From positions 16,033-80,032 of the forward strand of contig DASYRI010000111.1 in assembly GCA_036004545.1 (NCBI GenBank): 64,000 bases of DNA, given 5' to 3'. The DNA comes from Gemmatimonadales bacterium. Lineage in GTDB: Bacteria > Gemmatimonadota > Gemmatimonadetes > Gemmatimonadales > GWC2-71-9. The notes below the pieces were generated by a model, which was not told where the DNA came from, searched no databases, and saw nothing but the letters and a program-made list of their open reading frames with translations. Shown here piece after piece: positions 3,695 to 61,195 of the stretch. Positions within the stretch are counted from its first letter, which is position 1. Each line of letters begins with the position of its first letter. Both the position numbers and the translations under genes were made by a program.

Positions 3695-3893
3695 AGACAC
3701 GAAGACGCAAGGACGCAACGGCCCATGGGAGATCCGCCAGGGGCACCGACACTGGCGCCTCACCCCGCCCGTGCGCCGGCACGCATGTCACCATTAAGAA
3801 ACCTCAATCTCGCGTCCAGGGGGTGGCACGGCCGGCAAAACGAACCCGTTCGCGTCTTCGCGTCGTTTTTGCGTCTTCGCGTCTGTGCGTCTT
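3695..3893. repeat. mosaic short-period repeat block: inverted GACGCAA-type arms (3695-3721 and 3849-3893) flanking a ~127-bp core
   Basis: Left arm AGACACGAAGACGCAAGGACGCAACGG. Right arm TTCGCGTCTTCGCGTCGTTTTTGCGTCTTCGCGTCTGTGCGTCTT. Confidence 0.85.
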
Positions 3894-3903
3894 ATTTCCC
3901 TCC

Positions 3904-5046
3904 ATGCCCGCCTCCATTCCGCCCCCTCCAGCCACCTGGCTCCACCACCTCGCCGACGAGGCCGACGCGGCGTACCTCTATCGCGAGCTCGCGCGGGTGG
4001 AGCCGAACGCCTCGCGCGCCGAGATCTATCGCGACCTGTCCGACGTGGAACACCGGCACGTGGCGGCGTGGCGGCGCCTGCTCGCCGAGCAGGGCCACGA
4101 AGTGGCGTCGCCCGAGCCCAGCCGACGGGCGCGGTTCATGGCCTGGCTGGCGCGGCGGATCGGGCCGCAGGTCCTGCTCCCCTTCCTGCTCGAAGAGGAG
4201 GGCCGCGAGGTCAAGGGGTATCTGCAGCTCTACAGCGAGGCGCCCGGTGGAGCGGCCGCGCCGACCGCGCTCACGCTCGCCCGGGAATCCAAGGGCCACG
4301 CCGACCGGCTCGCGGGGCTGGTGAAGGGCGGCAGCGGCGAGCCGTGGCATAAGACCGGCGCCGGCGGTTTCCTCCGAAACCTGGTCTATGGATTCAACGA
4401 CGGTCTGACGGCGAATTTCGGGCTGGTGGCGGGGATGGTCGGGGCCCAACCGGGGCTGGGTGGTGGGGGGGGAGCCGTGAGCCACACCGTGCTGGTCGCC
4501 GGGCTCGCGGGCATGGTGGCCGACGCGCTCTCGATGGGCTCGTCGGGCTACCTCGCCGCCAAGAGCGAGCGCGAGGTCTTCGAGCACGAGATCGCGATGG
4601 AGCGGGAGGAAATCCGGCTCATGCCCGAGCTCGAGCGCGAGGAGCTCTCGCTCATCTACCAGGCCAAGGGCATCCCGGCCGGGCAGGCGGGTGAGCTGGC
4701 CACGGCGGTCATGGCCGATCCGGAGAAGGCGCTGAACGAGAAGGTGCGCGAGGAGCTCAAGATCGGCCCGGCGACCAGTACGCCGATGCGCGAGGCGTGG
4801 GTCACGGGGGTCGCGACCGCCTTCGGCGCGTTCATTCCGGTGGCTCCGCTGGTGCTCAGCCGGAGTCCCTGGGCGATCTGGACCTCGTTCGGCGTCGCGA
4901 TGGTTTCCCACTTCGGCGTCGGCGCAGCGCGGAGCTTCTTCACCGGCCGGGGCGTCGTCCGGAGCGGGCTCGACATGTTCGTGGTCGGGCTGGGAGTGGC
5001 GGTGCTCGGGTACTTTGTGGGGGAGTGGATCGTTCGGGTGCTGTAG
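3904..5046 (+). CDS. VIT1/CCC1-family iron/manganese transporter with an N-terminal ferritin-like domain
   Basis: EADAAYLYRELA...EHRH (ferritin-like) is followed by VYGFNDGLTANFGLVAGM...SMGSSGYLAAKSERE...FGAFIP (VIT1). I start it at the ATG at 3904 because the track extension runs through the repeat block. Confidence 0.85.
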   Translation: MPASIPPPPATWLHHLADEADAAYLYRELARVEPNASRAEIYRDLSDVEHRHVAAWRRLLAEQGHEVASPEPSRRARFMAWLARRIGPQVLLPFLLEEEGREVKGYLQLYSEAPGGAAAPTALTLARESKGHADRLAGLVKGGSGEPWHKTGAGGFLRNLVYGFNDGLTANFGLVAGMVGAQPGLGGGGGAVSHTVLVAGLAGMVADALSMGSSGYLAAKSEREVFEHEIAMEREEIRLMPELEREELSLIYQAKGIPAGQAGELATAVMADPEKALNEKVREELKIGPATSTPMREAWVTGVATAFGAFIPVAPLVLSRSPWAIWTSFGVAMVSHFGVGAARSFFTGRGVVRSGLDMFVVGLGVAVLGYFVGEWIVRVL

Positions 5047-5070
5047 AGCCGGAACAGACGCTGTCCCCCC

Positions 5071-7218
5071 TCACCCCCCGCGCCGTATCAGCGCGCCGGC
5101 CGCCTCGGCCTCCAGCGGCGCGCCGAGGTGGAATCCCTGGCCCAGCTCGCAGCCGAACGCGATCAGCCGCTCGAGCTGGGTCACCGTCTCGACTCCCTCC
5201 GCGATGACCCCCATTCCCAGCGTCCGGGCCAGGTCCATGATCGAGCCCACGATCTCGAGGTCGGTGCGGCGGAGCCCCATCCGGCGGATAAATGAGTGGT
5301 CAATCTTGAGGGTCTGCACCGGGAGCCGCGGCAGGTAGCTCAAGGACGCGTACCCGGTCCCGAAGTCGTCCATGAGGAGGTCCACCTCCATCTCACGGAG
5401 CTGCTGCAGGGTGCCGGCGGCGCTCTCCAGGTTCTCGAGAAGGGCCGTTTCGGTGATCTCGAGGCGGAGCCGCCGGGGCTCGAGCCGCTCGGCTTGCAAC
5501 ACCGCACGAACTTCCTCCACCAGATGGGCGTCTCCCAGCTGCTTGGCCGAGACGTTCACGCTGACGGGGATGTTGCCGGCGTCCGGGTAAGCCAGCTGCC
5601 AGCGGCGGGCGTAGCGGCACGCTTCGTGGAGCGCCCACAGGCCGATCGGCTGGATCAGGCCGGTCTGCTCGGCGATCGGGATGAACTCGGCCGGCGGGAT
5701 ATCGCCCCGGACGGGGTGATGCCATCGAAGCAGCGCCTCGAACGCCTTCAACCTGCGAGTCTCCAGGTCCACGATCGGCTGGAAGACGAGCGAGAACTCC
5801 TCGCGCTCGAGCGCGCCGTGGAGCTCGCTCACGATCCGGAAGCGGGCGTCGGCCTGGTCGCGCATGGCGATGTCGAAGACCTGGAAGCGGGACGGACCCA
5901 GCGCCTTGGCGCGGTACATGGCGATGTCCGCGTCGCGGAGCAGATCCTCGGCGCGGTGGTGGCCGGGCTCGCTCAGCACCGCGCCGATGCTCGCGGTGGC
6001 GACCAGGTCCCGCCCCGCCACCGGGAACGGCGGCGCGAGGGCTTCATGGATCCGCCGCGCGGCGTGCTCCACGTCGGCGGGCGCCAGCACCTCCTCGAGG
6101 AGCAGGGTGAACTCGTCCCCGCCCAGCCGCGCCACCACGTCTCCCGGCCGCAGGGCGGTCGTGAGGCGGCGGGCGATGTCGGTGAGGAGCTTGTCGCCGG
6201 CCTCGTGGCCCAGGCTGTCGTTCACCAGCTTGAAGTCGTCGAGGTCGAGAAATAGCACCGCGAATCGGTATCCAGGCTCCCGGCGGGCCCGTTCGAGCGC
6301 GCGGGTGACGCATTCGGCGAAGAAGCTCCGGTTGGGCAGATCGGTCAGCGCGTCGTGCAGCGCGGCGCGCTGGAGCCGGGCTTCGTCGAGCTTGCGCTCG
6401 GTGGCATCCCGCGCGATGGAGGAGGCGCCGATGATCCGTCCGCTTTCGTCGCGGATCGGCGAGACGGTCACGGAAACCGGCACCCGGGTGCCGTCCTTGC
6501 GGAGGCGGGTCGTCTCGTAGTGGTTCGCCCTCTCACCGCGGCGGAGCCGGGCCATGATCTCCGGGAGCTCGTCCGGCAGGTCGGGCGGGACGATGATCGC
6601 GATGGAGCGTCCGACCACCTCGTGGGCCCTCCATCCGTAGAGCCGCTCCGCCGCGGGATTCCAGCTGGTGATCACGCCGTCGAGCGTCTTGCCGATGATC
6701 GCATCCGTGGCCGAGCCCACCATCGCCTTGAACTGCGCGGCCATGAGCTCGGCCTCCATGCGGGGCGTGATGTCGCGGGTGATCCGATGGGCATCCACCA
6801 GCCGGCCCGCCACCAACCGCGCGCTGGCGCTGATCAGGCCGTAGCGGATCGAGCCATCCTTGTGGCGGAGCCGGACCTCGACGTCGCGCACCGATTCCCC
6901 GGCGCCGAGTCGGCGCCGGATGCCCGCCGCCTCCCGCGGGTCCACATGGAACTCGGCCACGTTGCGGCCGACGTACTCGTCGCGGGAGTAGCCCAGCATC
7001 TCGACCTCGGCCTGATTGGAGCGCAGGATGGTGCCGTCCGCCGCTTCCCAATGCATGCCCACCATGGCGCGCTCGAAGAAGTCCTCGAGATCCTCGGGGC
7101 GCAGCCCCGATGCCGCCCGGGAGCTCTCCCCGCCGGCCGCGGCCGGGGCTAGGCGCTGAGCCGTCAGGTCGAGGACGAGCTGATCCCGCGTGGGGCGCTT
7201 GGGGGTGGCGGCGGGCAC
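5071..7218 (-). CDS. PAS-PAS-GGDEF-EAL cyclic-di-GMP signalling protein
   Basis: RLGGDEF and FEALLRW motifs, two PAS-like segments, GTG start. Confidence 0.9.
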
Positions 7219-7645: not shown

Positions 7646-7790
7646 GACGCAATGACACAATGACGCAATGACGCAAAGACGCCAGGACGCAAAGACGCGA
7701 AGGCGGACGGGCGGACAGGTGGACAAACGGAATGACGGGAGGACGGAAAGACGGAGGTGTTCACCGTTGACCCTTGACCGTTGACGCAGT
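7646..7790. repeat. composite repeat block: GACGCAA-type x~7, GGCGGAC/GGACGG-type, CCGTTGAC-type x3
   Basis: Read directly: 7646-7699, 7700-7757 and 7762-7787. Confidence 0.9.
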
Positions 7791-7798: not shown

Positions 7799-9145
7799 TT
7801 ACCCACCCCCGCCCCCACCCCCGACCCACACCACCCGCCACACCCGTCCCCGCTGATCGTCCGTGATGAACAGCGCCCCGTCGGGTCCCTGGGCGAGCCC
7901 GGTGGGCCGATGGGCCGCGCCGCCCGGGTCCCGGGATCTGCCCGCGAAGTCGTCCGCGAAGGTTTCGAAGCTCGGGCCCAGGCGCCCGCCGCTCGCGGGG
8001 ACGAACACCACCTTGTACCCCGCCTGGGGCATCGGCGCGCGATTCCAGGAGCCGTGAAACGCGATGAACGCGCCGCCGCGGTAGCGCGCGGGGAACATCG
8101 CGCCGGCGTAGAGGAGGAGATCATCGGGGCCCCAATGACCGGGGAATCCGATCAGCGGCGGCTTCGCCGCGGCGCAGCGGCCCACGGTGGTGCCATCGCC
8201 CCCGTACTCCGGCGCGAGCACCTTCCGGCCCAGCGCGTTGTCGTGATAACAGTAGGGCCAGCCGAAGTCGTCGCCCCGCTCCACCTGAACCAGCTCCTCG
8301 GACGGCTGCTCGGCGCTCCGGGCGGCGGTGTACAGCGCGGGGAAGAGCGAGGCGAGCCCGTCGCGGCCGTGCGAAGCGGCGTAGAGACGGCGGGTCGTCG
8401 AGTCCCAGGCGATGCCGACGGCATTCCTCAGGCCCGTGGCCCAGCGCTCGCCCCGGCCGGGATGTTGCTGGTGAAGCTTCTCCGCGTCATAGCGCCAGAT
8501 CCCGGCCCGCTCCACGAGCTCGGGGCAGGGGTCGGGTCCGGTGCGCGTGCCGGCGTAGGTGCACACGTTGGAATCGGAGCCCACGTGGACGAACATGCCG
8601 CCGCGATCGTCGAAGGCCAGGCTCCTGCTGATGTGACCCCCGTTTGGGATCCCCTCGACGAGCGTTTCGGGGGCCGCCGCCGCGCTCATCCGATCGGGAC
8701 CGAGGCGGATCCGCTCCACCGTCGTGGTGGTGGAGTAGTAGAGCCAGTCGCCCCGGAGCGCGATGCCGGTGCCGCCGCCGGTCGCGATGCGGCGGACCAG
8801 GTCGGCGCGGCCGTCGCCGGAGGTGTCGCGGAGGATGGCGATCCCGCCAGGCTCCCGGCGGCGGCTGGTGCCCGCGCTGGTGCGGCTTCCGGGCTCCAGC
8901 GCCACGTACACGATGCCGTCCGGCCCGACGACGGCATGGCGGGCCACCCCGAGCGTGTCGGCGAAGATCGCCGCGCAGAAGCCGGCCGGGAGGGAGATCC
9001 CGCCGTTGTCGCGGTCGCACTCCGGATGGTCCGGAGAGGGTCCGGAGCGCGCCGCGCCGCAGGCAAGCAGCGCGGCCGACACGCCCAGGCCCACGCGGGC
9101 GCCGGCGGATCGCCCCGGCGGCGCCGGAGCAGCGGGAAGCCTCAT
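7799..9145 (-). CDS. PQQ-dependent sugar (glucose/sorbosone) dehydrogenase-like beta-propeller, secreted
   Basis: Signal/lipobox-like N-terminus, with DFGWPYCYHD and RPTGLAQGPDGALFITDD motifs. The C-terminus ends in GGGGGGG, encoded by repeat-like sequence. Confidence 0.8.
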   Translation of the reverse strand: MRLPAAPAPPGRSAGARVGLGVSAALLACGAARSGPSPDHPECDRDNGGISLPAGFCAAIFADTLGVARHAVVGPDGIVYVALEPGSRTSAGTSRRREPGGIAILRDTSGDGRADLVRRIATGGGTGIALRGDWLYYSTTTTVERIRLGPDRMSAAAAPETLVEGIPNGGHISRSLAFDDRGGMFVHVGSDSNVCTYAGTRTGPDPCPELVERAGIWRYDAEKLHQQHPGRGERWATGLRNAVGIAWDSTTRRLYAASHGRDGLASLFPALYTAARSAEQPSEELVQVERGDDFGWPYCYHDNALGRKVLAPEYGGDGTTVGRCAAAKPPLIGFPGHWGPDDLLLYAGAMFPARYRGGAFIAFHGSWNRAPMPQAGYKVVFVPASGGRLGPSFETFADDFAGRSRDPGGAAHRPTGLAQGPDGALFITDDQRGRVWRVVWVGGGGGGG

Positions 9146-39634: not shown

Positions 39635-39658
39635 TAGTTCTTCTGCGGGGGAGAGACG

Positions 39659-41191: not shown

Positions 41192-41195
41192 GCAT

Positions 41196-41310: not shown

Positions 41311-41350
41311 CGTAGATTCCGGGGCTCCCACACCAGAGCCTTCCACCTCC

Positions 41351-43920: not shown

Positions 43921-44230
43921 TCAGGTCGTGCCGTTCCCGGCAGGGGCTCTAGGGCTGGCGCCGGCGGGCTCCGGCACGTTGTTCTTTCGTCTCCCGAAGT
44001 ACCGCTTGAAGGCCGCGGCCGCGGCCGCGGCCGCGGCGGCGAGGCCGAGGAGAATGAATTTCTTCAACGCGAGGATGGCGACCCACACCACTTTGAAGAA
44101 TCCGGCTTTGACGGCCGCCGCTCCGGCGATCAGGCCCACGACGCCGTACGTGGCGGCTTTGTCCTTCCCGGGGAGGTAGTCGGCGTAGCGGTGCCCTTCG
44201 TTGAAGTCTACCGCCGCCAGGACTGCAGCT
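43921..44230 (-). pseudogene. 3' remnant of a DUF2167-like membrane-anchored protein gene
   Basis: Only the C-terminal ~100 aa (FNEGHRYADYLPGKDKAATYGVVGLIAGAAAVKAG...FKRYFGRRK) resemble the family as I remember it. Upstream in-frame sequence is unrelated, and composition changes at about 44230. Confidence 0.5.
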
Positions 44231-44435
44231 CCGGAGGACGTTGCTGGCACGGTAGGCGTTATGGTGCGGGTCGGGTAACACGGCGCTGCATCCGCGAGGC
44301 GGGTGGGGCGTTTTTCGTGTCCGACACTGTTCGAGGTCACAAGTTTGGGTGACGAAAATGAGTCAGTCCGTCTGACTTGACAAATTGGCGGAATTCCGTT
44401 ACCGGTGGCCCGAATTCCCGACGGGGGCATTCCTA

Positions 44436-45167
44436 ATGAGATCCTTCGTCACCATGATGATCCTCCTCCTGTTCTCCTCGGGCTGCGGCACCGATTCGAT
44501 GTCTACCCCTCCTGAAGGCAGGAAGCCCCGGTTCGACGTCGACCCATCCAAGGTGACGATCCCGTCCGACGCGACGGCGAGGGACCTCCTCGAGCGACAA
44601 GTAATAGAACAAATCACCGCCCGTGTGAAACCCAAGGAGCAAGCCGCCGTCCTCGAAGCGATTCGCGACGATCGCCGGGGGCGAGCATGGGCTGTCTATG
44701 GCGACAAAGAACTCAGCCGGCTCTTCTCGGTTCTGTATGCGATCCGTGACGCCCGTGCGGACGAAGAAGGCATGCGGAGTCGGCGGGCGCTCGCGTCCTC
44801 CCAGGAGGCGAACGTGCTCGTCGCTGTTGTCGAGTCCTTTCCTGAACCCTCCGTTTTTGCGCAGGTCACCCGCTCGACGGGTCCGCACGCCAGAAATGTG
44901 GTTCTCATTCGGCGAAGTGCGCTCTCGCCAGCGCGGCTTGCGACCGCGCTCGAGGCCGTGTCCGAGTCCCGCCGAATGGACGGGGACTTCCCACGGGAGG
45001 AGCGCATCGTCCTGCTCCGAGACTCGGGTCCCGTCGCACCGACCGTGCATGCCGCGAGAGCCGCCACGATCATTTCCAAACTGCGTTCAGGCGCCCTGCG
45101 GGAGGTGCCTGGGCACGGCACGCTGGTGGCGACCGAGGTGACCCTGCCTCCCGAACCGCGGCGCTAA
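44436..45167 (+). CDS. orphan lipoprotein (cassette gene 1)
   Basis: Lipobox LLLFSSGC and ATG at 44436. No known domain. The C-terminal ~115 aa resemble cassette gene 3. Confidence 0.6.
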   Translation: MRSFVTMMILLLFSSGCGTDSMSTPPEGRKPRFDVDPSKVTIPSDATARDLLERQVIEQITARVKPKEQAAVLEAIRDDRRGRAWAVYGDKELSRLFSVLYAIRDARADEEGMRSRRALASSQEANVLVAVVESFPEPSVFAQVTRSTGPHARNVVLIRRSALSPARLATALEAVSESRRMDGDFPREERIVLLRDSGPVAPTVHAARAATIISKLRSGALREVPGHGTLVATEVTLPPEPRR

Positions 45168-45210
45168 CGCCCTCGTCGATCAGGAAAGCGAATAGAACCG
45201 GAGCCGAACC

Positions 45211-45825
45211 ATGCGTTGGAGAGTCCTTCTCGCTGCGGTGAGTGGATTCGCCGGACTGGGTTTCTTGGCCGATGCGGCAAACCCGTCACGGCTTTGCGCG
45301 GACGGGACGTGCGACGAGGAAGGCGCGGACCTTACCAGTCCTGAGTTCTATACATCCAACGTGCGGGTTGTGATTCGGATCAACAATGTTGGAGACCGAA
45401 CGCTCTATGCGCGAGCGACGCACTGGATCAATCAGAACAAACGTCAGGGCCCCGGCAGCGCGTGGTACGTGCCGGCATCCTGGGACCCGTCGGACAAAGA
45501 CTCGGACGGCAAACAGTGGTTTGCGGAAGGGAATTGGCTGGGACTCTGTACCTGCGTTGGAAGAATCCCCTATATCCGCGCGGCGTCTCCTCCCGGTAAC
45601 TTCGACGGAACCACTTGGTCGGTTCAGACGGAAGAAGACATCGAACAAGACACCGGAGGCGAAGGGGGCGGCGGCGGCGGTGGCGGGGGTGGCAGCGGAG
45701 GAGGGATGACCTGCTACACCCTGACAACCGATTGGTACTGGTACTATCCGGACACCGACACGTACGTATACGATCACTCGGATTACCGGAGCTGGTGCGA
45801 AAACAACGGGGAGTACCAGACGTGA
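45211..45825 (+). CDS. orphan secreted Cys-containing protein with a poly-Gly linker and an aromatic/acidic C-terminal mini-domain (cassette gene 2)
   Basis: GGAG 8 nt upstream of the ATG, a signal peptide, 6 Cys residues, and GGEGGGGGGGGGGSGGG followed by MTCYTLTTDWYWYYPDTDTYVYDHSDYRSWCENNGEYQT. Confidence 0.55.
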   Translation: MRWRVLLAAVSGFAGLGFLADAANPSRLCADGTCDEEGADLTSPEFYTSNVRVVIRINNVGDRTLYARATHWINQNKRQGPGSAWYVPASWDPSDKDSDGKQWFAEGNWLGLCTCVGRIPYIRAASPPGNFDGTTWSVQTEEDIEQDTGGEGGGGGGGGGGSGGGMTCYTLTTDWYWYYPDTDTYVYDHSDYRSWCENNGEYQT

Positions 45826-45874
45826 GAGCAGACGATTGCCGAACCGCCTGTTCGACCCCCGCTGGAGCTTGGGT

Positions 45875-46348
45875 ATGAATCCCAATAAGGTGGTCAACGT
45901 ATCTGCCTGCGCTCTGCTATTGATGTGTCCAGGGGTGGGTGGCAATCTTCTCGCACAGGGAAGCCCTTTTGCTCCACCAAATCTCCCGGACGGGCGAGTG
46001 CCTGTCACACTCGTCCTGGTGAGCAACGGAGCGGCTCCCACCGTGTTCAGACGCGCCGGTCCTGAGCCGAGGAATCTGGTCCTGGTGGATTCCGCGAAGA
46101 TGGATGTTCAGAAGCTTTCCGATGCGATCTTCGGGCTCCTCGTGCTGGAGGCAACCGATCCGGGCGGCACCAATCGCAGCGATAACGAGGCGAGGCGCAT
46201 CAGCCTTGACAAACCGCACCCGGTTTACCGATGGGCGGAAGACGCGCTCATTCGACTGAAAAGCGCCACAAAACAACCGATCAGCGGCCTGGGTGAGCAC
46301 CGAAGTCTTAGAATGTGGTTGCCACTAGTGCGAGGACACGGCCGTTAG
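45875..46348 (+). CDS. orphan secreted protein, distant paralog of cassette gene 1 (cassette gene 3)
   Basis: Signal peptide from ATG 45875. Shared pattern with gene 1: P(S/T)VF, GP..RN(V/L)VL(I/V), ...(I/L)..L(R/K)S......G.G......(V/W)(T/L)(L/P). Confidence 0.5.
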   Translation: MNPNKVVNVSACALLLMCPGVGGNLLAQGSPFAPPNLPDGRVPVTLVLVSNGAAPTVFRRAGPEPRNLVLVDSAKMDVQKLSDAIFGLLVLEATDPGGTNRSDNEARRISLDKPHPVYRWAEDALIRLKSATKQPISGLGEHRSLRMWLPLVRGHGR

Positions 46349-46472
46349 CATGAGCCCCTGACCTCCAGGAGGGCGCGCGAGAGCGCCGGCGAGAAAGTTC
46401 GAAGTCGAGCTCATGCGGTGCCCCACACGTCCTTCTCCGCAGCGGGGTGCTCGTTCGAAGGGCGCGTTGCAG

Positions 46473-46514
46473 AGCGGGCGACCGGACTCGAACCGGCGAC
46501 GTCCAGCTTGGGAA
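46473..46514 (-). tRNA. orphan 3' fragment of tRNA-Gly(CCC): anticodon loop to discriminator, no 5' half
   Basis: The minus strand reads TTCCCAA GCTGG ACGTC GCCGG TTCGAGT CCGGT CGCCCGC T. That is the anticodon loop (CCC), the 3' anticodon stem, the variable loop, a complete T-arm, the acceptor 3' strand and U73. No matching GCGGGCG 5' acceptor strand or D-arm lies upstream. Confidence 0.7.
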
Positions 46515-46854
46515 TGGGCGAGCCCGACGATCCCGACCTCTCGAGCGTTACCAGCGACCCCTTCCAGGTTCGACTCGACTGGTTCGACTATCCCCACTAC
46601 CGCACGGTGACGGGTATCGTCGAGATCGCGTTCTGAGCGCTCTCAGGAACACCGCGACGCGCCGTTGCCGTAGCGGGCCAGGAATCTCCTTCCCCCTCCC
46701 GACGGTTCTCTGTGCCATCGGTCCGGAGTGCGACCCCATCAGCCCCCGCGCCGCCCCGCCCGCGATCCTGTAGCTATCCGCTCGTCTCGCGATAACTTGA
46801 AGGCGTCCCTGCACCACTTGTACGCCTCCCACCCTCCGGCCGGAGCGCCGCGCG

Positions 46855-47830: not shown

Positions 47831-50218
47831 ATGGCCGAGCTCTGGGAGCAGCTTCAGGCCACGCTGGGCGGCGCCTACACGCTGGAGCGCGAGCTGGGCG
47901 GCGGCGGGATGTCGCGGGTTTTCGTGGCCACCGAACGGCGCCTCGGCCGCCGGGTGGTGGTGAAGGTCCTGCGCTCCGAGATCGCGGCCGGAACCAGCGC
48001 GGAGCGGTTCGAGCGGGAGATGGCGCTCTGTGCCCGCTGCCACCATCCCCACATCGTCCCGCTCCTCGCCGCGGGCGAGGTCGGCGGCCTTCCCTGGTTC
48101 ACGATGCCGCTGGTGGAGGGGGAATCGCTCCGCGACCGGCTGGAGCGGCAGGGCCCGCTGCCCGTGGGGGAGGCGGTGCGCCTGCTGACCGAAGTGGCCG
48201 ATGCCCTGGCCTACGCGCACCGCCTGGGCATCGTCCATCGCGACATCAAGCCCGAGAACATCCTGCTCCACGACGGCCACGCCGTCGTCGCCGACTTCGG
48301 GGTGGCCAAGGCCTTCCACGCCGCGACCCGGGCCGAGCTCCCGTCGCAGGCCACCGGCGTCGGCGTCGTGATCGGCACGCCGGCCTACATGGCACCCGAA
48401 CAGGCGATGGGTGACGCCGGCGTGGACCATCGGGTGGATCTCTACGCGCTCGGCGTGGTGGCCTTCGAGCTCCTCACCGGCCAGCACCCGTTCAGTGGGA
48501 TGACTCCTCAGGCGATCCTCGCGGCGCAGCTGAACCGGACTCCGCCGCCGATCGCGCGGGCACGTCCCGAGTGTCCGCCCGGGCTCGCGGCGCTGATCGG
48601 CCGGCTGCTCGCGCGGGAGCCCGCGGACCGCCCGGCGACGGCGGAGGAGGTGCGCGCCGAGCTCCTCGCCCTGGCGGGCGGCGCCGCCGCTCACGCCGGA
48701 AGCCGGCCTCCGGGCCGTCGGGTCTGGCTCGCGGTCGGGGCTCCCTTCCTCGCCGCATCGCTGCTGTTGATCGCGCTGGCCGCCCGGCATCGCCCGAATC
48801 CAAGGCCGGCGCCGGCCTCCGGCGATGCCGGAGTGAAATCGCTGGCGGTGCTTCCCTTTCAGAACATCGGAGGAGACTCGACCACCAACTACTTCAGCGA
48901 TGGGCTGGCCGAGGAGCTGATCAGCGCGCTGGGCCGGCTCGGGGGTCTCCGGGTGGCGTCGCGCACCTCCGCGTTCGCCGCCAAGGCGCGGAGCGGCGAC
49001 CTGCGCGAAATCGGACAGCGCCTCGCCGTGGCGACGGTGCTCGAGAGCAGCGTGCGCCGCGATGGTCCCCGGGTCCGGGTCACCACCCGCCTGGTGGACG
49101 TCGCGCGCGATTCCCAGCTCTGGACCGGAGAGTACGAGAGCCGGCTCGAGAACGTCTTTGCGGTGCAGGACACCATCGCCCACGCCATCGCGGGGGCGCT
49201 CCGGATCACCCTGGCCCGCGGAGGGGGAGCGCGGCTGGTCGCCCAGGGCACCGCCGATCCGGAGGCGCACGACCTGTACCTGCGGGGCCGCGAGTTCCTC
49301 GCCAATCGGACGCCGGTCTCGCTGCGGAAGGCGATCGACGCCTTCCGCGCGGCGCTGGCCCGGGACTCGACCTACGCGCTGGCCCAGGCGGGCCTCGCCG
49401 ATGCCTACAGCCTGGCCGTGCCGTTTGGCGGCTTCTACCCCGCCGAGGCGATTCCGCTGGCCGAGACCGCGGCCCACCGGGCGCTCGCGCTGGATTCCAC
49501 GCTGGCGGAGGTGCACGTCTCCCTCGGCATCATCGCGATGTTTCACGACTGGGACTGGAGGGAGGCGAGCCGGCGCCTTTCCCGCGCCGTCCAGCTCAAC
49601 CCAAGCTCGGCGCAGGCGCGGCTGTTCCATGCCTGGTACCTCCTGCTGACCGGCCGTCCCGAGGAAGGGCTGGCCGAAGTCGAGCGGGCGAGGACGCTGG
49701 ATCCGCTCTCGCTGATCATCAACACGCGGGTGGCGAGCTTCCTGCACTTCATGGGGCGCGACGCGGAGGCCATTCCCGCCTTCCAGCGTGCCCTCGCGCT
49801 CGACTCCACGTTCGCGCCCGCCCGGGCCGGGCTCGCGCTTTCCTATGCGGAGCTCGGGCGCTTCAAGGAGGCGCTGTCCCTTCCCGCCCCCCTCGAATCC
49901 CTGCTGGGGACCTTCGAGGCGGGCACGTTCGCCGCGGTGCAGGCGATGGCGGGCCGCCCCTTCGAGGCAAGGCGGATTCTGGGCGAAATGGAAACGGTTC
50001 GGAAGCAGCGCTACATGGGAGCGGAGGGATTCGCCGACGTGCGCGCGGTCCTGGGAGATACCGACGCGGCGTTCGCCGAGCTGGAGCGGGGCTATCGGGA
50101 GCGTGCGTTCACGCTCGTCACCATCCGGGTCGAGCCGATGCTCGCCCCACTCCACGCCGATCCGCGCTGGGGCCGGCTCATGGCACGGCTCAATTTTCCG
50201 CCTGCGCCCACCCGTTAA
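47831..50218 (+). CDS. Ser/Thr protein kinase with TM, periplasmic TolB-N-like module and TPR repeats
   Basis: GGGMSRVF, VVK, HRDIKPEN, DFG, APE; then SLAVLPFQNIGGDSTTNYFSDGLAEELI; then TPR-like repeats. Confidence 0.9.
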   Translation: MAELWEQLQATLGGAYTLERELGGGGMSRVFVATERRLGRRVVVKVLRSEIAAGTSAERFEREMALCARCHHPHIVPLLAAGEVGGLPWFTMPLVEGESLRDRLERQGPLPVGEAVRLLTEVADALAYAHRLGIVHRDIKPENILLHDGHAVVADFGVAKAFHAATRAELPSQATGVGVVIGTPAYMAPEQAMGDAGVDHRVDLYALGVVAFELLTGQHPFSGMTPQAILAAQLNRTPPPIARARPECPPGLAALIGRLLAREPADRPATAEEVRAELLALAGGAAAHAGSRPPGRRVWLAVGAPFLAASLLLIALAARHRPNPRPAPASGDAGVKSLAVLPFQNIGGDSTTNYFSDGLAEELISALGRLGGLRVASRTSAFAAKARSGDLREIGQRLAVATVLESSVRRDGPRVRVTTRLVDVARDSQLWTGEYESRLENVFAVQDTIAHAIAGALRITLARGGGARLVAQGTADPEAHDLYLRGREFLANRTPVSLRKAIDAFRAALARDSTYALAQAGLADAYSLAVPFGGFYPAEAIPLAETAAHRALALDSTLAEVHVSLGIIAMFHDWDWREASRRLSRAVQLNPSSAQARLFHAWYLLLTGRPEEGLAEVERARTLDPLSLIINTRVASFLHFMGRDAEAIPAFQRALALDSTFAPARAGLALSYAELGRFKEALSLPAPLESLLGTFEAGTFAAVQAMAGRPFEARRILGEMETVRKQRYMGAEGFADVRAVLGDTDAAFAELERGYRERAFTLVTIRVEPMLAPLHADPRWGRLMARLNFPPAPTR

Positions 50219-50272
50219 CTGTTAACCGTTCGCCGTTCACGGCCCCGTCCCCTGACCCCTGACCCCTGTCCT
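50212..50272. repeat. CCGTTAAC-type units followed by CCCCTGA heptamers
   Basis: Fills the 52-nt gap between convergent genes and includes both stop codons (TAA 50216-50218 and the complement of CTA 50271-50273). Confidence 0.85.
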
Positions 50273-52758: not shown

Positions 52759-53254
52759 GGCCGTGACGGTGTCCCGCAAGCTGCTGGCCATCGCCGGCCC
52801 GGGCGAGGGTGCGTCCGCCGAGGCCGTCGCCGATGCCGAGCGGATCGGCGAGCTCGCCGCGAGCGCGGGCTGGGTGGTGATCTGCGGCGGACGGAACGCC
52901 GGCGTCATGGCGGCCGCGGCGCGCGGGGCCGCGCGGGCGGGCGGCATCGCGCTGGGCCTGCTCCCGTCGCCCGACGACCGCGACACGGCGCCGGGGCTCA
53001 CCGCCGCGCTCGCCACCGGGCTCGGCGAGGCGCGGGACGCCGTGCTCGCGCAGAGCTGCCACGCGATGGTGGTCTGCGGGATGAGCGCCGGCACGGCGGC
53101 GGAAGTGGCGCTCGCGATCAGGGCGTGGAAGCCGGTGGTGCTGGTCCGGCCCGACCGCGCCGCCGAAGAGTTTCTGGGCGGCCTGAGCGGCGACCGGGTC
53201 TTCGTCGTGAGCGACGCCGATCAGGCCGTCGCCCTGCTCATGACGAGCAGCTGA
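52748..53254 (+). CDS. TIGR00725/LOG-like Rossmann-fold protein
   Basis: VICGGRNAGVMAAAARGA...GG and MSAGTAAEVALA patterns. It overlaps the upstream stop by 11 nt and converges on selO with a 17-nt overlap. Confidence 0.65.
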   Translation: MPREAVTVSRKLLAIAGPGEGASAEAVADAERIGELAASAGWVVICGGRNAGVMAAAARGAARAGGIALGLLPSPDDRDTAPGLTAALATGLGEARDAVLAQSCHAMVVCGMSAGTAAEVALAIRAWKPVVLVRPDRAAEEFLGGLSGDRVFVVSDADQAVALLMTSS

Positions 53255-54755
53255 CCGGGACCTCGGGCGAGCCGGCGACGGGGGGCTCGGCGTACCGCGC
53301 CATGCCGGGATGCTCGGCGAACGGATCCGCGAGGAGGCGGCGCAGCTCCTCGATGAGCCCCAACTCCCTCGCCTCGGCCCGCTCGATGGCCTCCTGCGCG
53401 ATCCAGTTCCGGAGCACGTACTTCGGATTCACCCGCCGCATCCGCGCCGCCCGCTCGGCGTCCACGCTCCCTTCGGCGCCCAAGCGTGCCGAGTAGCGCT
53501 CGAGCCAGGCGTCGATGCCCCTGCGATCGGCGAACAGCGATTGGACAACCCTGTTCACCGTTGACCGTTGACCGTTGACGCTGTCCAGACTGTTCTCGTT
53601 GACTGTTGACTGTTGACTGTTGATGCGGTCGAGCTCCCGGAAAAAGCGGGCGTAGTCGACCCGCCCTTCCTGGAGAAGCGCCAGCGCGTCCCGCACCAGC
53701 CCCGCGTCCTCTTCCCGCTCGGTCGCGAGGCCGAGCTTCGCCCGCATCAGCCGGCCGTACTCGCCGGCGAACTCCTCGCGATAGCTCTCGAGCTCCGCCT
53801 GCGCCGCCTCCAGGTCAACCAGGGACAGCAGCGCCTCGCCGAGCCGGGCGCAGTTCCAGAGTCCCACCGCCGGCTGCCGATCGAACCCGTAGCGGCCTTC
53901 GGTGTCGGAGTGATTGCAGATGAATCCCGCGTCGTACTGGTCGAGGAAGCCGTAAGGTCCGTAGTCGAGGGTCAGGCCCAGTACCGACATATTGTCGGTG
54001 TTCATCACGCCGTGCGCGAAGCCGGCCGCCATCCAGCCGGCGATGAGCCGGCCGGTGCGGCGGCACACCTCGCCGAAGAAGCGGCGGTAGCGGTCGTCGG
54101 CCGGCGAGCCGCCCAGCGCGGCGAAATGCTTCGCGATCACGTAGTCCGCGAGCTCCCGAACGCGTTCCGTCTCGCCCCGAGCCGCGAAGTACTCGAAGGT
54201 CCCGAACCGGACGTGGCTCGGGCTCTGGCGCAGCAGGGTCGCGGCGGTCTCGATCCGCTCCCGCTGCACCGGGAGATCGCTCCCGACGATGGCGAGCGCA
54301 CGCGTCGTGGGGATGCCCAGGCCGTGGAGCGCCTCGCCGGCGAGATACTCGCGGATCGCGGAGCGCAGGACCGAGCGGCCGTCGCCCCCGCGGGAAAAGC
54401 GGGTGGTGCCGCCGCCCTTCAAGTGGAGATCCCAAGACTCGCCGCGGGAATTCCGCACCTCGCCCAGGAGAAACGCGCGGCCGTCGCCGAGCCGGGGGAC
54501 CCAGACGCCGAACTGGTGGCCGGCGTACGCCTGGGCGATCGGCTCCGCGCCGGGCATCCGCTTCGCCCCGCTCAGGCAGCGCGGCAGGTCGGCATCCGCC
54601 GACGCCGCGGGGTCGAGCTCGAGCAGCTCGGCGGCGTCAGGGTTGAAGGCGACCAGGTACGGATCGGGAAGCGGCGTCGGGTCCACCACCTCGTAGAACG
54701 CCGGGTGGAGCCGGGCGTAGCTGTTGTGGAACGGGAGGCGGGTCAGGGAAGCCAC
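53238..54755 (-). CDS. selO: protein adenylyltransferase SelO (YdiU family)
   Basis: LPFHNSYARLHPAFY, YAGHQFG, LGDGRA, GVMNTDNMS and DYGPYGF motifs. It contains repeat-derived sequence in frame. Confidence 0.9.
   Translation of the reverse strand: MASLTRLPFHNSYARLHPAFYEVVDPTPLPDPYLVAFNPDAAELLELDPAASADADLPRCLSGAKRMPGAEPIAQAYAGHQFGVWVPRLGDGRAFLLGEVRNSRGESWDLHLKGGGTTRFSRGGDGRSVLRSAIREYLAGEALHGLGIPTTRALAIVGSDLPVQRERIETAATLLRQSPSHVRFGTFEYFAARGETERVRELADYVIAKHFAALGGSPADDRYRRFFGEVCRRTGRLIAGWMAAGFAHGVMNTDNMSVLGLTLDYGPYGFLDQYDAGFICNHSDTEGRYGFDRQPAVGLWNCARLGEALLSLVDLEAAQAELESYREEFAGEYGRLMRAKLGLATEREEDAGLVRDALALLQEGRVDYARFFRELDRINSQQSTVNENSLDSVNGQRSTVNRVVQSLFADRRGIDAWLERYSARLGAEGSVDAERAARMRRVNPKYVLRNWIAQEAIERAEARELGLIEELRRLLADPFAEHPGMARYAEPPVAGSPEVPVSCSS
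53553..53625. repeat. two CCGTTGAC/CTGTTGAC arrays in frame inside selO
   Basis: 53556-53580 and 53595-53625, read on the minus strand as INSQQSTVNENSLDSVNGQRSTVN. Confidence 0.9.
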
Positions 54756-58200: not shown

Positions 58201-60102
58201 CTACCGGTCGAGATAGTCCTGGTATGCCACCTGCAGCATCGCCCGCCCCAGTCGCAGGTCGAGGTCGCTCACCCGCCCGGAGCTCGAGGTGATCCGGTTC
58301 GGGGCGTGCTCCCAGACGAACGCCCCCCGATCGGTCACCAGCCCGAAGCCGTCGTCGAAGCTGTAATAGGCGAACGGCCTGGGCTCCGAAGAGAAGAGAT
58401 CGCCGCCGAAGCGGTACCGCCCTGCGCCGGGCAGTCCGAGCAGCGCGAGGAGCGTCGGCGCGAGGTCCGTCTGGGAGCCGATCGCGTCCACCACCTCTCC
58501 CCTCCGGGCGAGCGCGCCGCCCAGCCAGAGCATCGGGACGTGATACCAGCTCGGCGCGGACTTGTACGGCACCGCCCGGTCGGTGCGCTCCAGCTTCTTC
58601 GAGTGATCGGCCACGATGATCACCAGGGTCCGGTCCCACCACGGCTCCTGTTCGGCGCGCGCGATGAAATCGCCCAGCACGTGGTCGGTGTAGGCCAGCG
58701 AGTTGAGGAAGCGCGATTCGCCGTCGCTGCCGGGAACCCGCACCGGCCCGGGCACGTCGAACGGCTCGTGGCTGCTCAGGGTCATCCAGGCGACGAAGAA
58801 GGGCGACCCCATCCCGCGAAGGTCCCCGAGCACCCGCTCCGCCACCGCCTCGTCGTGCGCGCCCCACTTCGAGGTCCGCGCCGAGCGCGGGAAATCGTCC
58901 TTGCCGGCGACCCGGGTGAACCGTCCGTCCAGCACGAAGCTCCTCAGGTTGGCGAAGCCCAGCTCGCCCCCGTAATAGAAGCCGGTGGCATAACCCGCGT
59001 CCGCCAGGTCCCTGGAGAGCATCGGCAGCGTCGCGGCCTTGGACGGCACCTTCAGGATGGAGGCGTTGGGGACCGTCGGCTGGCCCGAGAGCAGCGCGGC
59101 GAGGCCCTTGTCGGTGCGGTCGCCGGCGGCGTAGAAGCGGCGGAAGAGGAGGCCCGAATCCGCCAGCCGGCCGAAGGCCGGCGTGGTACCGCGCAGGCCG
59201 CCAAGCCGCTCCACCGCCCGGGCGGTGAAGCTCTCCCAGACGATCAGCAGCAGGTTGGGCCGCGCGACCCGGAGCAGCGGTGATCGCCCCCCGGCGGAAC
59301 TGCGCGGTCCGGCCGGCGCCGGCGGTCCTTCGGCTGTCGCCGCTCCGGCGCTCAACCGGGCGACCAGTGCCCCGGCGGAATCCGCCGGCATCACCACGTA
59401 CGGGTTGGTGCGGCGATCGAGCCCGCGGATCCACGAATCGAAGAAATTCCACCCGGCGTTGAGCGCCGCCTGGTTGGCGAACGGCTCGCTGGTGAACCAG
59501 GCGCTGCTCTGGTTGATCGGAATCTGCTGCAGTCCGCCCCGCGCCGGAATCACCAGCAGCAGGGCGCAGAAGCCGAGCGGCAGGCCTCCCGCGGCCGGTA
59601 CCGGCGGCAGCCTGGCGAGCCTCGGCCGGAAGAGCCGCCATGCGATCCCGGCGGAGAGCGCCGCGAGCCCGGTGAAGATCGCCACCAGCGCGAGACGCGG
59701 CACGCCTCCGGCGGAGGCCCACACCTCCCGCGGATGGGTCAGGTACTGGAGCACCGCCGCGTCAATCCGGCGTCCCCACGCGCGGAAGATTCCGAGGTCG
59801 GAGGCGGCCAGGAGCGCCAGCGCGGTGGAGGCGAGCACCGTGTAGCCCAGCAGCACGCGCCCCGTCCCGCGCGCGATGCTCGCGATGGCCGAGAGCGCGA
59901 TGAGCAGGAACGGGATCACCGAGAGCCACGCCGCGGCCGAGAGGTCGAGCGGGAACCCGTGCAGGAGGGTCCCCGCGAGGATGCCGCCCGGCAGCGCCGC
60001 GGCGCGATCGGCGTTCCAGAGGAGAAAGAGGAGCCGGCACCCGGCGAAGAAGGCGAGCCAGTAGAGGAGATAGATGAGGAGGAGCTGGAATCGGGGGCGC
60101 AC
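58201..60102 (-). CDS. LTA-synthase / sulfatase-family membrane enzyme
   Basis: Five N-terminal TM segments, then a sulfatase-fold domain (NLLLIVWESF, GLAALLSG, WMTLSSHEPF, ADHS). Confidence 0.8.
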   Translation of the reverse strand: MRPRFQLLLIYLLYWLAFFAGCRLLFLLWNADRAAALPGGILAGTLLHGFPLDLSAAAWLSVIPFLLIALSAIASIARGTGRVLLGYTVLASTALALLAASDLGIFRAWGRRIDAAVLQYLTHPREVWASAGGVPRLALVAIFTGLAALSAGIAWRLFRPRLARLPPVPAAGGLPLGFCALLLVIPARGGLQQIPINQSSAWFTSEPFANQAALNAGWNFFDSWIRGLDRRTNPYVVMPADSAGALVARLSAGAATAEGPPAPAGPRSSAGGRSPLLRVARPNLLLIVWESFTARAVERLGGLRGTTPAFGRLADSGLLFRRFYAAGDRTDKGLAALLSGQPTVPNASILKVPSKAATLPMLSRDLADAGYATGFYYGGELGFANLRSFVLDGRFTRVAGKDDFPRSARTSKWGAHDEAVAERVLGDLRGMGSPFFVAWMTLSSHEPFDVPGPVRVPGSDGESRFLNSLAYTDHVLGDFIARAEQEPWWDRTLVIIVADHSKKLERTDRAVPYKSAPSWYHVPMLWLGGALARRGEVVDAIGSQTDLAPTLLALLGLPGAGRYRFGGDLFSSEPRPFAYYSFDDGFGLVTDRGAFVWEHAPNRITSSSGRVSDLDLRLGRAMLQVAYQDYLDR

Positions 60103-60123: not shown

Positions 60124-60145
60124 GGGGGGCGATGTCTCGCCCCCC
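60124..60145 (-). terminator. candidate intrinsic terminator hairpin after the 60191..61045 gene
   Basis: Perfect 9-bp GC stem (GGGGGGCGA tgtc TCGCCCCCC). On the minus strand it is followed by GCTTCCGTTT, which is only a weak U-tract. Confidence 0.4.
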
Positions 60146-60190
60146 GCCCCCGGATTTCGCTCGCCGGGCGACGCTCCCCCCTCCCGCCGG

Positions 60191-61045
60191 CTACGGGCGC
60201 GGGAACCGGTGACGGGTGCTCAGATCAATGTCGAACGTCCGGTCGCCGATCGTGAGGGTGGCGGTGGCGGTGCCGTGGAAGGTGACGACCACGGTGCGCT
60301 GGATCGTCGTTCCGTCGTGGGGGCCGCCCACGATCGTGACGGTGCAGGAGCGGGTAATGGTCCCGCTCAGCGGGAAATGCGGTCCGCCGTCGCCGGAGGG
60401 CACCGGCACGACGACGTCCTGGATCGTCACCGAGCAGTCGAGGTTGTAGGTGCGGGTCTCGCCGCCCTCGGTGCTCCGGCTCCGGGTCACCTTGTCGTGC
60501 CCGGTGCCGTTCCAGGTGCGCTGGGTCTCCGCGCCCGCCAGGCCGGTGGCCGTCAAGTCCTTGCCCCGATCCACCGAGCCGCTCCAGAACTCGCCGCTTC
60601 GGGTGCCGACGAACGAGGTCTGGAGGTTGGCCTTCGCGGTGGTGGTCGCGTCGTAGGCCTGCTGCACCGCGTTCGCCGCATCCCAGAACGCGTAGCTCCG
60701 GTTGATGGTGATCCCGTCGTGCGAGATGGTGGGGCAGACCAGCCGGCCGGAGGCGGCGTCGAACGGGCAGTTCAGGGGATGGAAGTCGCCGCGCCCCAGC
60801 TCAAACACCGGGCCCGGCCCGGAACCGACCGCTCCCAGCGCGCCCGGAGCAAAGAAGGGCATGAAGGCGAAGAAGACCGGCTCCCGCATGACATCCACGT
60901 CTTCGCCGATGCCATCGGCCGCCGCCTGAGCCAGGTCCGCGGCCAGGAAGGGCAGCTGCTGGTCGGTCGGGCCGGTCGAGTCCTTGCTGCACGCGCCGAG
61001 CACCACGGCGCAAGTCAAGGCACCACAGCGGATTAGCGTCTTCAT
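60191..61045 (-). CDS. hypothetical lipoprotein
   Basis: Lipobox AVVLGAC from ATG 61045. No recognised domain. Confidence 0.6.
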   Translation of the reverse strand: MKTLIRCGALTCAVVLGACSKDSTGPTDQQLPFLAADLAQAAADGIGEDVDVMREPVFFAFMPFFAPGALGAVGSGPGPVFELGRGDFHPLNCPFDAASGRLVCPTISHDGITINRSYAFWDAANAVQQAYDATTTAKANLQTSFVGTRSGEFWSGSVDRGKDLTATGLAGAETQRTWNGTGHDKVTRSRSTEGGETRTYNLDCSVTIQDVVVPVPSGDGGPHFPLSGTITRSCTVTIVGGPHDGTTIQRTVVVTFHGTATATLTIGDRTFDIDLSTRHRFPRP

Positions 61046-61146
61046 GGTGGTCCTCGTGATGGAAAGTCGGTCGGGTCGGTTCACCCTGGCACTCAGGCAG
61101 ACGAACCGCCACCCGGGCCGTTAAGTGTATCACGTCCCCGATTCTC

Positions 61147-61195
61147 CCACCTGTCCGCCCGTCCGCCTGTCCATCCTTCCGTCATTGCGTCTTCC
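61147..61195. repeat. reverse-complement GGCGGAC-type plus GACGCAA-type units overlapping the DUF502 stop
   Basis: CCACCTGTCCGCCCGTCCGCCTGTCCATCCTTCCGTCATTGCGTCTTCC. Its first 21 nt are the exact reverse complement of 7702-7722. Confidence 0.85.

Follow-up and report, generated by a model that had tools for sequence, protein, structure and literature searches.

A 64,000-nucleotide stretch of contig DASYRI010000111.1 (the window), from a Gemmatimonadales bacterium, carries eleven dispersed blocks built of contiguous 7- or 8-nt units. We propose that the blocks are lineage-wide tandem arrays of the short tandemly repeated repetitive (STRR) or long-motif simple sequence repeat (SSR) type, which would be made and maintained at the DNA level; our rough probability for this reading is 0.5. 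The arrays are over-represented compared with both shuffled sequence and the loci of other genomes, and at the same sites in related contigs they change in length by whole units, are gained or lost, or are found with another unit in place. The window has a G+C content of about 71% and encodes many Ser/Thr kinases with TPR repeats. For two of its proteins the nearest homologs that carry a name belong to Gemmatimonadales/Gemmatimonadetes metagenome-assembled genomes (MAGs), at 62-76% identity, and by these hit names the source is probably an uncultured member of the group.

Occurrence of the Arrays

All eleven loci read as described in the initial annotation of this DNA, and Tandem Repeats Finder reports a period-7 or period-8 array at each of them, with 2.5-14 copies arranged head to tail without spacers. 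The blocks had been set apart from CRISPR, and rightly so; CRISPR are direct repeats of 24-48 nt regularly spaced by unique spacers of similar length, whereas the units found here are contiguous and only 7-8 nt long. The blocks and their immediate surroundings are as follows (ECF, extracytoplasmic function; TPP, thiamine pyrophosphate; z, folding energy relative to shuffled sequence).

3695-3721: A-type left arm with octamers AGACACGA, AGACGCAA and GGACGCAA; 42 nt upstream of the start of an ECF sigma factor gene (3096-3653, minus strand)
3849-3893: inverted A-type arm with TTCGCGTC/TTTGCGTC units; ends 10 nt ahead of the start of a VIT1-family gene at 3904
7646-7757: A/B octamer array of 14 consecutive units in one unbroken period-8 register, in the order GACGCAAN (seven), GGCGGACN (three), AACGGAAT (one) and GACGGNAN (three); downstream of the stop of gene 7799-9094 (minus strand); no RNA structure (z -0.9)
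7759-7790: C-type heptamers (CCGTTGA), about 3.9 copies
7801-7850: C-rich tract resembling the complement of D; forms the last ~17 codons (…GRVWRVVWVGGGGGGG and stop) of the GSDH-like gene 7799-9094 (minus strand)
27012-27050, plus strand: D-type G-rich heptamers, GGGGGTT (three) and GGGGTCA (2.6); between divergent genes, 56 nt upstream of an ECF sigma factor gene (27106-27633, plus strand); no hairpin (z +0.9)
29811-29879: F-type hairpin with GGAGGTA/GCGAGGA arms; between the convergent genes for a Cu-oxidase (stop 29793) and LeuRS (stop 29896)
35121-35183, minus strand: A+B octamer array in frame, 21 codons of the TPP enzyme gene 34395-36182
36196-36312: E-type octamer hairpin, GGGGAGCT (4.4 copies) and CTAGCTCC (9.5 copies); overlaps the stop of a GMC oxidoreductase gene (36303) and ends 14 nt ahead of the TPP enzyme start codon
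39536-39634: C-type heptamer hairpin, arms 39536-39562 and 39604-39634 with a 44-nt loop; starts at the stop codon of gene 38367-39536 and ends 25 nt ahead of a start at 39659
41196-41310: B-type octamer hairpin, CAGGCGGW (seven copies) and TTCCGCCN (4.6 copies); starts 5 nt past a stop at 41191
50212-50272: C-variant heptamers (CCGTTAA/CCGTTCA), then the D complement (CCCCTGA, 2.9 copies); between convergent genes, overlapping both stops (50218 and 50271); no structure (z -0.2)
53553-53625, minus strand: two direct C-type heptamer arrays inside the SelO gene 53238-54755
61147-61195: B/A mosaic octamers overlapping the last codons of a DUF502 gene (61182-61751, minus strand)

A strict self-match scan of the window finds five period-7 and four period-8 arrays, while 30 dinucleotide-preserving shuffles give 0.0 arrays at either period; the shuffle test proposed in the annotation, here run on the window, leaves the arrays well above composition. 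No excess over the shuffles is seen at periods 4, 5 and 9-12 in the same scan, and a looser scan of the window gave no convincing loci beyond the eleven. The density of period-7/8 arrays in the window is about 17 per 100 kb (11 in 64 kb), or roughly one per 6 kb. Loci from 80 other genomes have nine such arrays in 1.37 Mb (0.66 per 100 kb), which makes the window about 26 times denser. These controls are the SelO loci among the matches listed when a genome collection was scanned with a SelO alignment; they belong mostly to other phyla, with at most 56% identity, and three of their nine arrays fall in Gemmatimonadota loci.

Two independent metagenome assemblies (contigs L001 and L002) cover six of the blocks at 99.8-99.99% identity to the window. 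They differ from it by substitutions only, and the six arrays are identical without any indel, which meets the worry about assembly artefacts that the annotation had raised. DNA identical to the window is recorded only in two Joint Genome Institute (JGI) metagenomes. The contig L002 (aligned there to window positions 36074-36173) stops about 20 nt short of the E hairpin, and 17 of its 19 mismatches lie within the final 100 nt. This end is probably an assembly break or a mixture of strains at the repeat.

Orthologous Sites in Relatives

Six contigs from other samples are syntenic with the window, with protein identities of 92% (L206), 83% (L209), 80% (L004), 78% (L003 and L207) and 70% (L005). 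Each holds one to six arrays, with homologous arrays at orthologous sites, and about 90 kb from relatives make up the array data together with the 64 kb of the window. The comparison of orthologous regions called for in the annotation gives a divided answer: arrays occupy the same intergenic sites in the relatives, while some sites are empty.

Array length differs between the genomes. The E hairpin has 4 + 5 units in L206 and 4.4 + 9.5 in the window, and the B array beside the DUF502 gene has about ten units in L004 and about three in the window, between the same flanks. The array in the TPP enzyme gene is longer in L206 by exactly 24 nt, corresponding to three octamers and eight amino acids (AKTQGRND), while L207 has a shorter GACGGAAG version. 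The changes seen in the intragenic arrays all preserve the reading frame.

Whole arrays are also present or absent. In L207 the gap between the Cu-oxidase and LeuRS genes, which holds the F hairpin in the window, is 17 bp without an array, and the GMC and TPP enzyme genes, separated by the E hairpin in the window, overlap by 4 nt. Conversely, L004 has a C-type hairpin between its sulfatase and GMC genes; the window has 21 bp at this site, in which the left flank and a single GTCAAC unit are kept. The L004 hairpin (3065-3210) is 82.5% identical over 103 nt, including the 44-nt loop, to the C hairpin of the window (39520-39658), although the two are found at non-orthologous sites.

At some junctions the hairpin stays and the unit changes. 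The C hairpin between the genes encoding 390 and 511 amino acids is present in both the window and L206 and is a decayed remnant in L207, while L209 has a hairpin of GACGGAAN octamers there. The next junction, between the 511-amino acid and kinase genes (the 41196 site), carries an octamer hairpin in four of four relatives examined, with differing arm units. The unit types moreover tend to recur within a genome. L207 has GACGGAAN at both the TPP and the 511-amino acid/kinase sites, where the window has B. In L005 GTGAAC is found both in SelO and in an intergenic hairpin, and GCTCACC both at the kinase/AstE site and in another hairpin, while the window, L003, L004 and L206 have GTCAAC.

The array in SelO translates to INSQQSTVNENSLDSVNGQRSTVNR, a peptide inserted in frame when compared with E. 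coli YdiU, and the unit GTTGACT is present at 53598-53623. The insertion is common to many homologs at 68-80% identity, as VNSQQSTVN or VNGQRSTVNG, and absent from others. In L003 the SelO heptamers are perfect, which implies continuing homogenisation of an old insertion. The SelO alignment has further inserts of variable length at columns ~137-152, 321-343 and 438-457 (sequences P0002, P0005-P0008, P0019-P0025, P0044 and P0066), and these may be additional in-frame repeat insertions.

Units and Their Sharing Between Loci

The three exact strings reported as shared between distant loci are confirmed in position and strand; GGCGGACGGGCGGACAGGTGG is found at 7702 (plus) and 61147 (minus), CCGTTGACCGTTGACCGTTGAC at 39605 and 53558, and AGGGGTCAGGGGTCAGGGG at 27031 (plus) and 50249 (minus). 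Longer matches exist as well. The A-B junction of 7646-7757 aligns in reverse complement to 61147-61195 (85% over 48 nt) and also to 35121-35183 (83% over 58 nt), and the 7759-7790 block, taken together with its GTTCAC edge unit, matches 53552-53581 at 97% identity across 30 nt, so that a 30-nt block including the edge variant is common to 7758 and 53552. Together with the whole hairpin at a second site, these junctions and this block link the loci beyond coincidence, and the proposal of one dispersed family is upheld.

The array units consist of a constant core of 5-7 nt with variable positions. A (GACGCAAN), GACGGAAN and B (GGCGGACN/GGCGGAAN) form a series where neighbours differ by one or two bases, and they appear as gradients within single period-8 arrays. 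In L206 and L209 one arm grades from TTCCGCC via TTCCGTC to TTGCGCC and TTGCGTC. These gradients indicate that A and B are not separate parts of a fixed composite; they are mutational neighbours in evolving arrays. The six modules had been taken to form a composite element with a recurrent module order. The composite is not sustained, as the units grade into each other; among 33 B-type hairpins on other contigs no relation is seen between the loops. When it comes to module order, the shared A-B junctions stand, while the unit order at 61147 differs from that at 7646.

The observed recurrence of units does not extend to a set of special sequences. A metagenome scan for three consecutive copies of GGCGGACN gave at least 120 contigs, with 41-75% G+C among the matches listed. 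These contigs also hold at least 61 unselected heptamer arrays (about 9 per 100 kb) with very diverse units, and almost nothing at periods 9-11. Among viral contigs B arrays occur in seven and C arrays in 17, the latter at 32-66% G+C, while three composition-matched control units occur in 8, 22 and 14 contigs. The control units being as frequent, the window units are not special, and the idea of particular sequences shared across phyla was rejected on this ground and on the broad G+C range. It is the length of the unit, and not a particular sequence, that is selected or generated.

Some of the predicted viral contigs (L210-L233) have long B or C arrays, such as about 345 nt of period 8 in L211, and further heptamer arrays are found in L217, L220, L231 and L232. 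Viruses and prophages of array-rich hosts may accumulate arrays too. An inverted octamer pair, (TCTTGGCG)x3 and (ACGCCAAG)x3, is found at 13784-13912 of L068 from the alphaproteobacterium Rhodopila globiformis DSM 161, and the paired architecture therefore occurs outside Gemmatimonadota and Geobacter. A BLAST search of the C and B hairpins against plasmids gave no match, possibly owing to low-complexity filtering.

Gene Context

Nine of the eleven blocks are intergenic, while intergenic DNA makes up about 11% of the window (P = 1.3e-7). Seven of them either overlap a stop codon or are 0-18 nt away from one (7646-7790, 29811, 36196, 39536, 41196, 50212 and 61147). The remaining intergenic blocks both separate divergent genes and lie upstream of an ECF sigma factor gene in each case, and the last two are in frame inside the SelO and TPP enzyme genes; in the latter, 35121-35183 sits in the linker joining the middle and C-terminal domains. 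The statement that nearly all blocks abut gene ends therefore applies to the seven at stops, and not to the two in divergent promoter regions or the two intragenic ones. In a larger sample (128 arrays), which combines the window with its relatives and with GC-rich metagenome contigs, a stop codon is found at a distance of 10 nt or less for 24% of the arrays, compared with 2.3% for random placement; the stops are those of a crude gene prediction. The gene map of the window agrees with the JGI gene calls over 27-42 kb.

The two arrays in divergent regions (within 3654-3903 and 26947-27105) lie about 40-60 nt upstream of the ECF sigma factor genes, which may be a coincidence. At 7799-7850 a G-rich repeat tract seems to have replaced or extended the 3' end of the GSDH-like gene. 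In-frame coding repeats of period 21, unrelated to the 7-8-nt family, are found at 33601-33660 (a gene with an MCP-signal domain) and 59615-59684 (a sulfatase gene).

A segment of lower G+C content at 43921-46850 (62.5% for 44001-46000) separates a kinase gene from a ParB_N-like gene; these are adjacent in the syntenic L207, 94 nt apart. It begins with a truncated DUF2167 gene (43921-44250, covering only profile positions 173-236 of 238) and contains three open reading frames (ORFs) without a Pfam match. By eye, the 3' half of a tRNA-like sequence can be seen on the minus strand (T-loop GGTTCGAGTCC at 46484-46494), where ARAGORN and Rfam call no tRNA. The segment resembles an island that has been integrated and has kept a remnant attachment site.

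Folding of the Inverted Pairs

Five loci had been described as inverted arms able to form hairpins. Four of them fold well beyond shuffled sequence, with z values of -9.1 (39530-39640), -8.5 (29805-29885), -5.4 (41190-41316) and -3.4 (36190-36318), while the arms at 3695/3849 are 127 nt apart and pair weakly (z -2.2). The direct-only arrays of the window have no structure (z -0.9 to +1), and the D array at 27012-27050 satisfies the sequence rule for a G-quadruplex. When other contigs are included, the stems consist of 20-35 bp of tandem units, the loops are 4-130 nt long, and z values down to -10 are reached. In the 41196 hairpin only the GGCGG/CCGCC cores pair, and the positions between them form regular internal loops.

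The loops of the 33 B-type hairpins are mostly unstructured. The growth of arms at the base of pre-existing hairpins was rejected as a general rule, since the median z of the loops between arms is about 0 and only 22% are structured. There are single loops with structure of their own. In L005 (4728-4835) a GC stem of the classical terminator type, with a U-rich run behind it, lies between the heptamer arms GGTGAGC/GCTCACC. REP-like palindromes are found in L113 and L140, and a palindromic repeat distinct from the arrays, containing GTCATCCTGAGCGAAGCGAAGGA, is nested between or beside B-type arms at L113 4878-5040, L140 4682-4853, L173 1433-1581 and L115 ~1720-1810. This repeat occurs in several unrelated soil contigs, and the loops holding it have z values of -9 to -10 in L113 and L140.

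For eleven hairpins between co-directional genes both strands could be compared. Only four have their better fold on the sense strand, and this strand is not enriched in G-U pairs. This lack of a sense-strand bias makes the complementarity look like a property of the DNA and not of an RNA-selected stem, and the comparison gives no support for stems shaped by selection at the RNA level. The stems are not followed by U tracts, and the only one of them to match in a terminator scan is 39613-39634, through its tail; the hairpins thus differ from intrinsic terminators, in which the transcribed strand has a GC-rich hairpin and then a U run. Sites of the canonical terminator type show no enrichment in this region (8 found, 4.4 expected). 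Rfam, a search named in the annotation, gives no match at the gathering score to any described RNA family in the whole window, and tRNA scans gave nothing. It was also considered whether the direct arrays could be C-rich, unstructured Rho-utilisation sites, an idea that was dropped because the C-rich strand is sense at some loci and antisense at others.

Proposed Origin and Alternative Explanations

According to the reading proposed here, the arrays would gain and lose whole units through replication slippage; differences of whole units are seen between the relatives. Unit variants and whole blocks would in addition be copied between loci, as suggested by the genome-specific units and the dispersal, probably through unit homology that primes template switching or ectopic gene conversion, and such copying would give each genome its own unit repertoire. 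The arrays are found after stops, between the genes of operons and in frame-keeping protein linkers, and these are presumably places where extra DNA is tolerated. Inverted pairs could form long hairpins or cruciforms that, judged by their position and by analogy with repetitive extragenic palindromic (REP) sequences and bacterial interspersed mosaic elements (BIMEs), might be barriers to transcription or RNA decay, and this effect may be a side effect and not a selected function.

Several points weigh against this explanation. Slippage alone leaves both the inverted arms around unrelated loops and the constant unit core with one varying position unexplained, and the strand comparison gives no support for inverted pairs acting on transcripts. 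The case for copying between loci comes from a few examples on short contigs, and genome-specific units could be mimicked by ancestral mosaic arrays that were sorted differently among lineages. At two orthologous sites the unit type has been replaced and a hairpin kept, which looks like selection for a structure or a binding platform. Plain slippage accounts least well for this persistence and for the genome-specific repertoires. A dedicated trans-acting system might write, copy or maintain the arrays, in analogy to the partnership of REP sequences with REP-associated tyrosine transposases (RAYTs). We regard such a system as rather improbable; it could consist of a multimeric binding protein or of a nuclease or recombinase with sequence specificity. 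If it exists, it would account for the genome-specific units at orthologous sites, the inverted arrays flanking unrelated DNA at variable distance and the insertion just after stops.

Among the alternatives, the arrays could be binding sites for one or more trans-acting proteins, for instance a nucleoid-associated protein or global regulator that reads the constant core. The inverted pairs would then bind a multimer, as has been proposed for Geobacter metallireducens. The constant core of 5-7 nt fits this, as does the pairing in the 41196 hairpin, where complementarity is limited to the cores; so do inverted pairs at variable distance around unrelated loops, which are also known from Geobacter, and the position of both divergent-promoter arrays upstream of ECF sigma factor genes. 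Unit variants specific to a genome across its loci would be expected if the sites co-evolve with a protein. However, at least six unit families coexist in 64 kb, with many more in related contigs, and periods of 7-8 bp do not match the helical repeat of DNA. Arrays in frame within enzymes, two orthologous sites that are empty in L207, and control units as common as the window units in viral contigs are also difficult to reconcile with it, and we consider binding-site arrays an unlikely alternative.

The inverted-arm blocks might instead be non-autonomous mobile elements, of the foldback type of miniature inverted-repeat transposable element (MITE) or REP-like, with ends made of tandem subrepeats and a transposase encoded elsewhere. 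That the whole C hairpin with its 44-nt loop is found at different sites in the window and L004 is what such an element would produce, and differences in presence at orthologous sites, the strong preference for positions just after stop codons, and genome-specific unit types at conserved sites, which are known for REPs, can be understood in the same way. We nevertheless find this explanation doubtful. Filled and empty sites show no clear target-site duplication and no fixed termini, element length varies, the 33 B-type loops are unrelated, and five of the eleven loci are direct arrays only. Neither a transposase nor a RAYT was revealed by scanning 30 ORFs of the window with Pfam, among them most of the genes beside arrays, or by the Pfam annotation of the related contigs.

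Similarly low is our estimate for a third possibility, that the hairpins are selected RNA elements, either factor-independent terminators or protectors of mRNA 3' ends, and that stems of tandem units are the way this lineage makes them. Their very strong folding in the window and relatives, their location 0-18 nt after stops and the retention of a hairpin at two orthologous sites though both arms have changed unit type would agree with such a function, as would the L005 hairpin around a classical GC stem with a U run and the lack of enrichment of canonical terminators in the region. On the other side stand the even-handed result of the strand comparison, the missing U tracts, the unstructured direct-only arrays and the two sites empty in a relative. 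The E hairpin in addition lies within an operon, 14 nt before the next start, and the same two genes overlap in L207.

Chance low-complexity sequence or assembly artefacts can practically be dismissed: L002 does end about 20 nt before the E array, after a cluster of mismatches, and assemblers struggle at repeats, but shuffles give no period-7/8 arrays, two independent assemblies hold identical ones, homologous arrays stand at orthologous sites in six more contigs from other samples, and arrays are translated in frame within conserved proteins.

Comparison With Known Repeats

REP sequences and BIMEs are 20-40-bp palindromes with GTAG/CGTC tags and stems of 5-13 bp, for which roles in termination or mRNA stability are suspected (Di Nocera et al., 2013, PMC3733652). 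Like these, the hairpins described here are abundant repeats located mostly just downstream of coding regions, with some intragenic copies; REPs are furthermore species-specific and often form inverted dimers (PMC3733652). The stems in the window are, however, 20-35 bp long and made of tandem 7-8-mers, they have no constant tag, and no RAYT is found in the ORFs scanned. The hairpins thus fall outside the palindrome-and-tag definition of REP/BIME. Rickettsia palindromic elements are in-frame repeats in conserved protein genes, tolerated as extra peptide, and are 100-150 bp long and single-copy. In-frame insertion in conserved genes is shared with these elements, while the arrays of the window change length in unit steps. 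Drosophila foldback (FB) elements have inverted ends of short tandem subrepeats around a variable middle. The inverted subrepeat ends are similar, and one element of the window recurs together with its middle part at a second site; the difference is that no target-site duplication, defined termini or transposase were found in the window and its relatives, and that many blocks are direct-only. In the comparison of filled and empty sites a CCTGCG repeat possibly flanks the E hairpin only. The initial annotation had recognised no REP or MITE family in the blocks. For REP this agrees with the absence of REP features; for MITE the case is less clear-cut, in that inverted arms are present and no clear duplication is seen. 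Phase-variation SSRs, whose copy number differs among very close strains and turns a gene on or off, are also a poor fit, with no indel in six arrays at 99.8-99.99% identity and housekeeping enzymes as the genes concerned.

The blocks are to be grouped with the STRRs of cyanobacteria, the long-motif SSRs and the paired hepta- and octanucleotide sites of G. metallireducens. They consist of contiguous units of the 5-11-nt class, mainly non-coding, which are over-represented compared with shuffles and controls. In the strict sense STRRs are repeats of heterocystous cyanobacteria with the units CCCCAGT, TTGGTCA and CAACAGT. The window, with its closest homologs in Gemmatimonadales MAGs, falls outside this definition, even though one unit coincides: GTTGACT is a rotation of the reverse complement of the STRR3 unit (Mazel et al., 1990), which we take to be CAACAGT.

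Heptanucleotide STRRs of heterocystous cyanobacteria have been compared with related repeats elsewhere, the unit being GGGGA(C/T)T in Nostoc and GGGAATC in Xanthomonas (Rehm et al., 2015, PMC4692102). The GGGNATC repeats of these two genera are intergenic near ORF ends and occur in inverted forms too (PMC4692102), and TAACTGA repeats are found in Beggiatoaceae. The likeness to the window covers several traits: tandem heptamers are dispersed, strongly intergenic near ORF ends and in part inverted, they are rare between divergent genes, and their length varies among relatives at the same sites, as is seen here. The D array is G-quadruplex-capable like the Nostoc repeat, whereas most units of the window are not. 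The window differs from the STRRs also by belonging to another phylum (Gemmatimonadota, 71% G+C), by having octamers as common as heptamers, and by holding many unit families side by side that grade into each other within one array.

SSRs with units of 5-11 nt are over-represented in large, GC-rich genomes of non-pathogens, and length-driven slippage has been proposed for them (Mrazek et al., 2007, as summarised in PMC4692102). An excess of heptamer arrays in a high-GC soil organism with a large genome fits that summary, while inverted pairing, mosaics, sharing between loci and in-frame insertions go beyond the survey as it is summarised there.

Among described cases G. metallireducens is the closest, with classes 1-3 (GTTGCTYN, TCTCCGTS[Y] and MTYCTGA), TWGTTGAY, and an intragenic GGACCGG present in four copies (Aklujkar et al., 2009, PMC2700814). 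Each of its sites has 3-5 tandem 7-8-nt units, with pairs on opposite strands at variable distance, and the sites exist in dozens of copies, intergenic and intragenic, specific to one Geobacter species (PMC2700814). TCTCCGTS is similar to the TCTCCGTC arm of L206 and TWGTTGAY to CTGTTGAC; this is a resemblance of letters, and the control scans suggest that units recur by chance. The Geobacter sites have fewer units per site than the window and have been interpreted as binding sites for the regulators IHF/HU. Some of them have insertion sequence elements at a fixed distance, and none were seen beside the arrays of the window.

The initial annotation recognised no known family. The family itself is indeed a dispersed one, but its kind has been described in cyanobacteria and G. 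metallireducens, while a literature search of incomplete coverage found no description of such repeats in Gemmatimonadota. This is therefore a known kind of bacterial repeat, here in a phylum for which no earlier report was found. In practical terms the arrays break short-read assemblies and add variable peptide segments to conserved enzymes like SelO, and gene calling and alignment in MAGs of Gemmatimonadota can be misled by such segments. The record of intergenic heptamer and octamer arrays goes back to 1990 and covers cyanobacteria, Xanthomonas, Beggiatoaceae and Geobacter. The present lineage is a dense example where synteny allows comparison site by site, and this comparison reveals unit-step length change, arrays gained or lost at fixed sites, the exchange of one unit family for another at the same site and genome-specific repertoires, patterns that make local slippage testable against active copying or a trans-acting factor.

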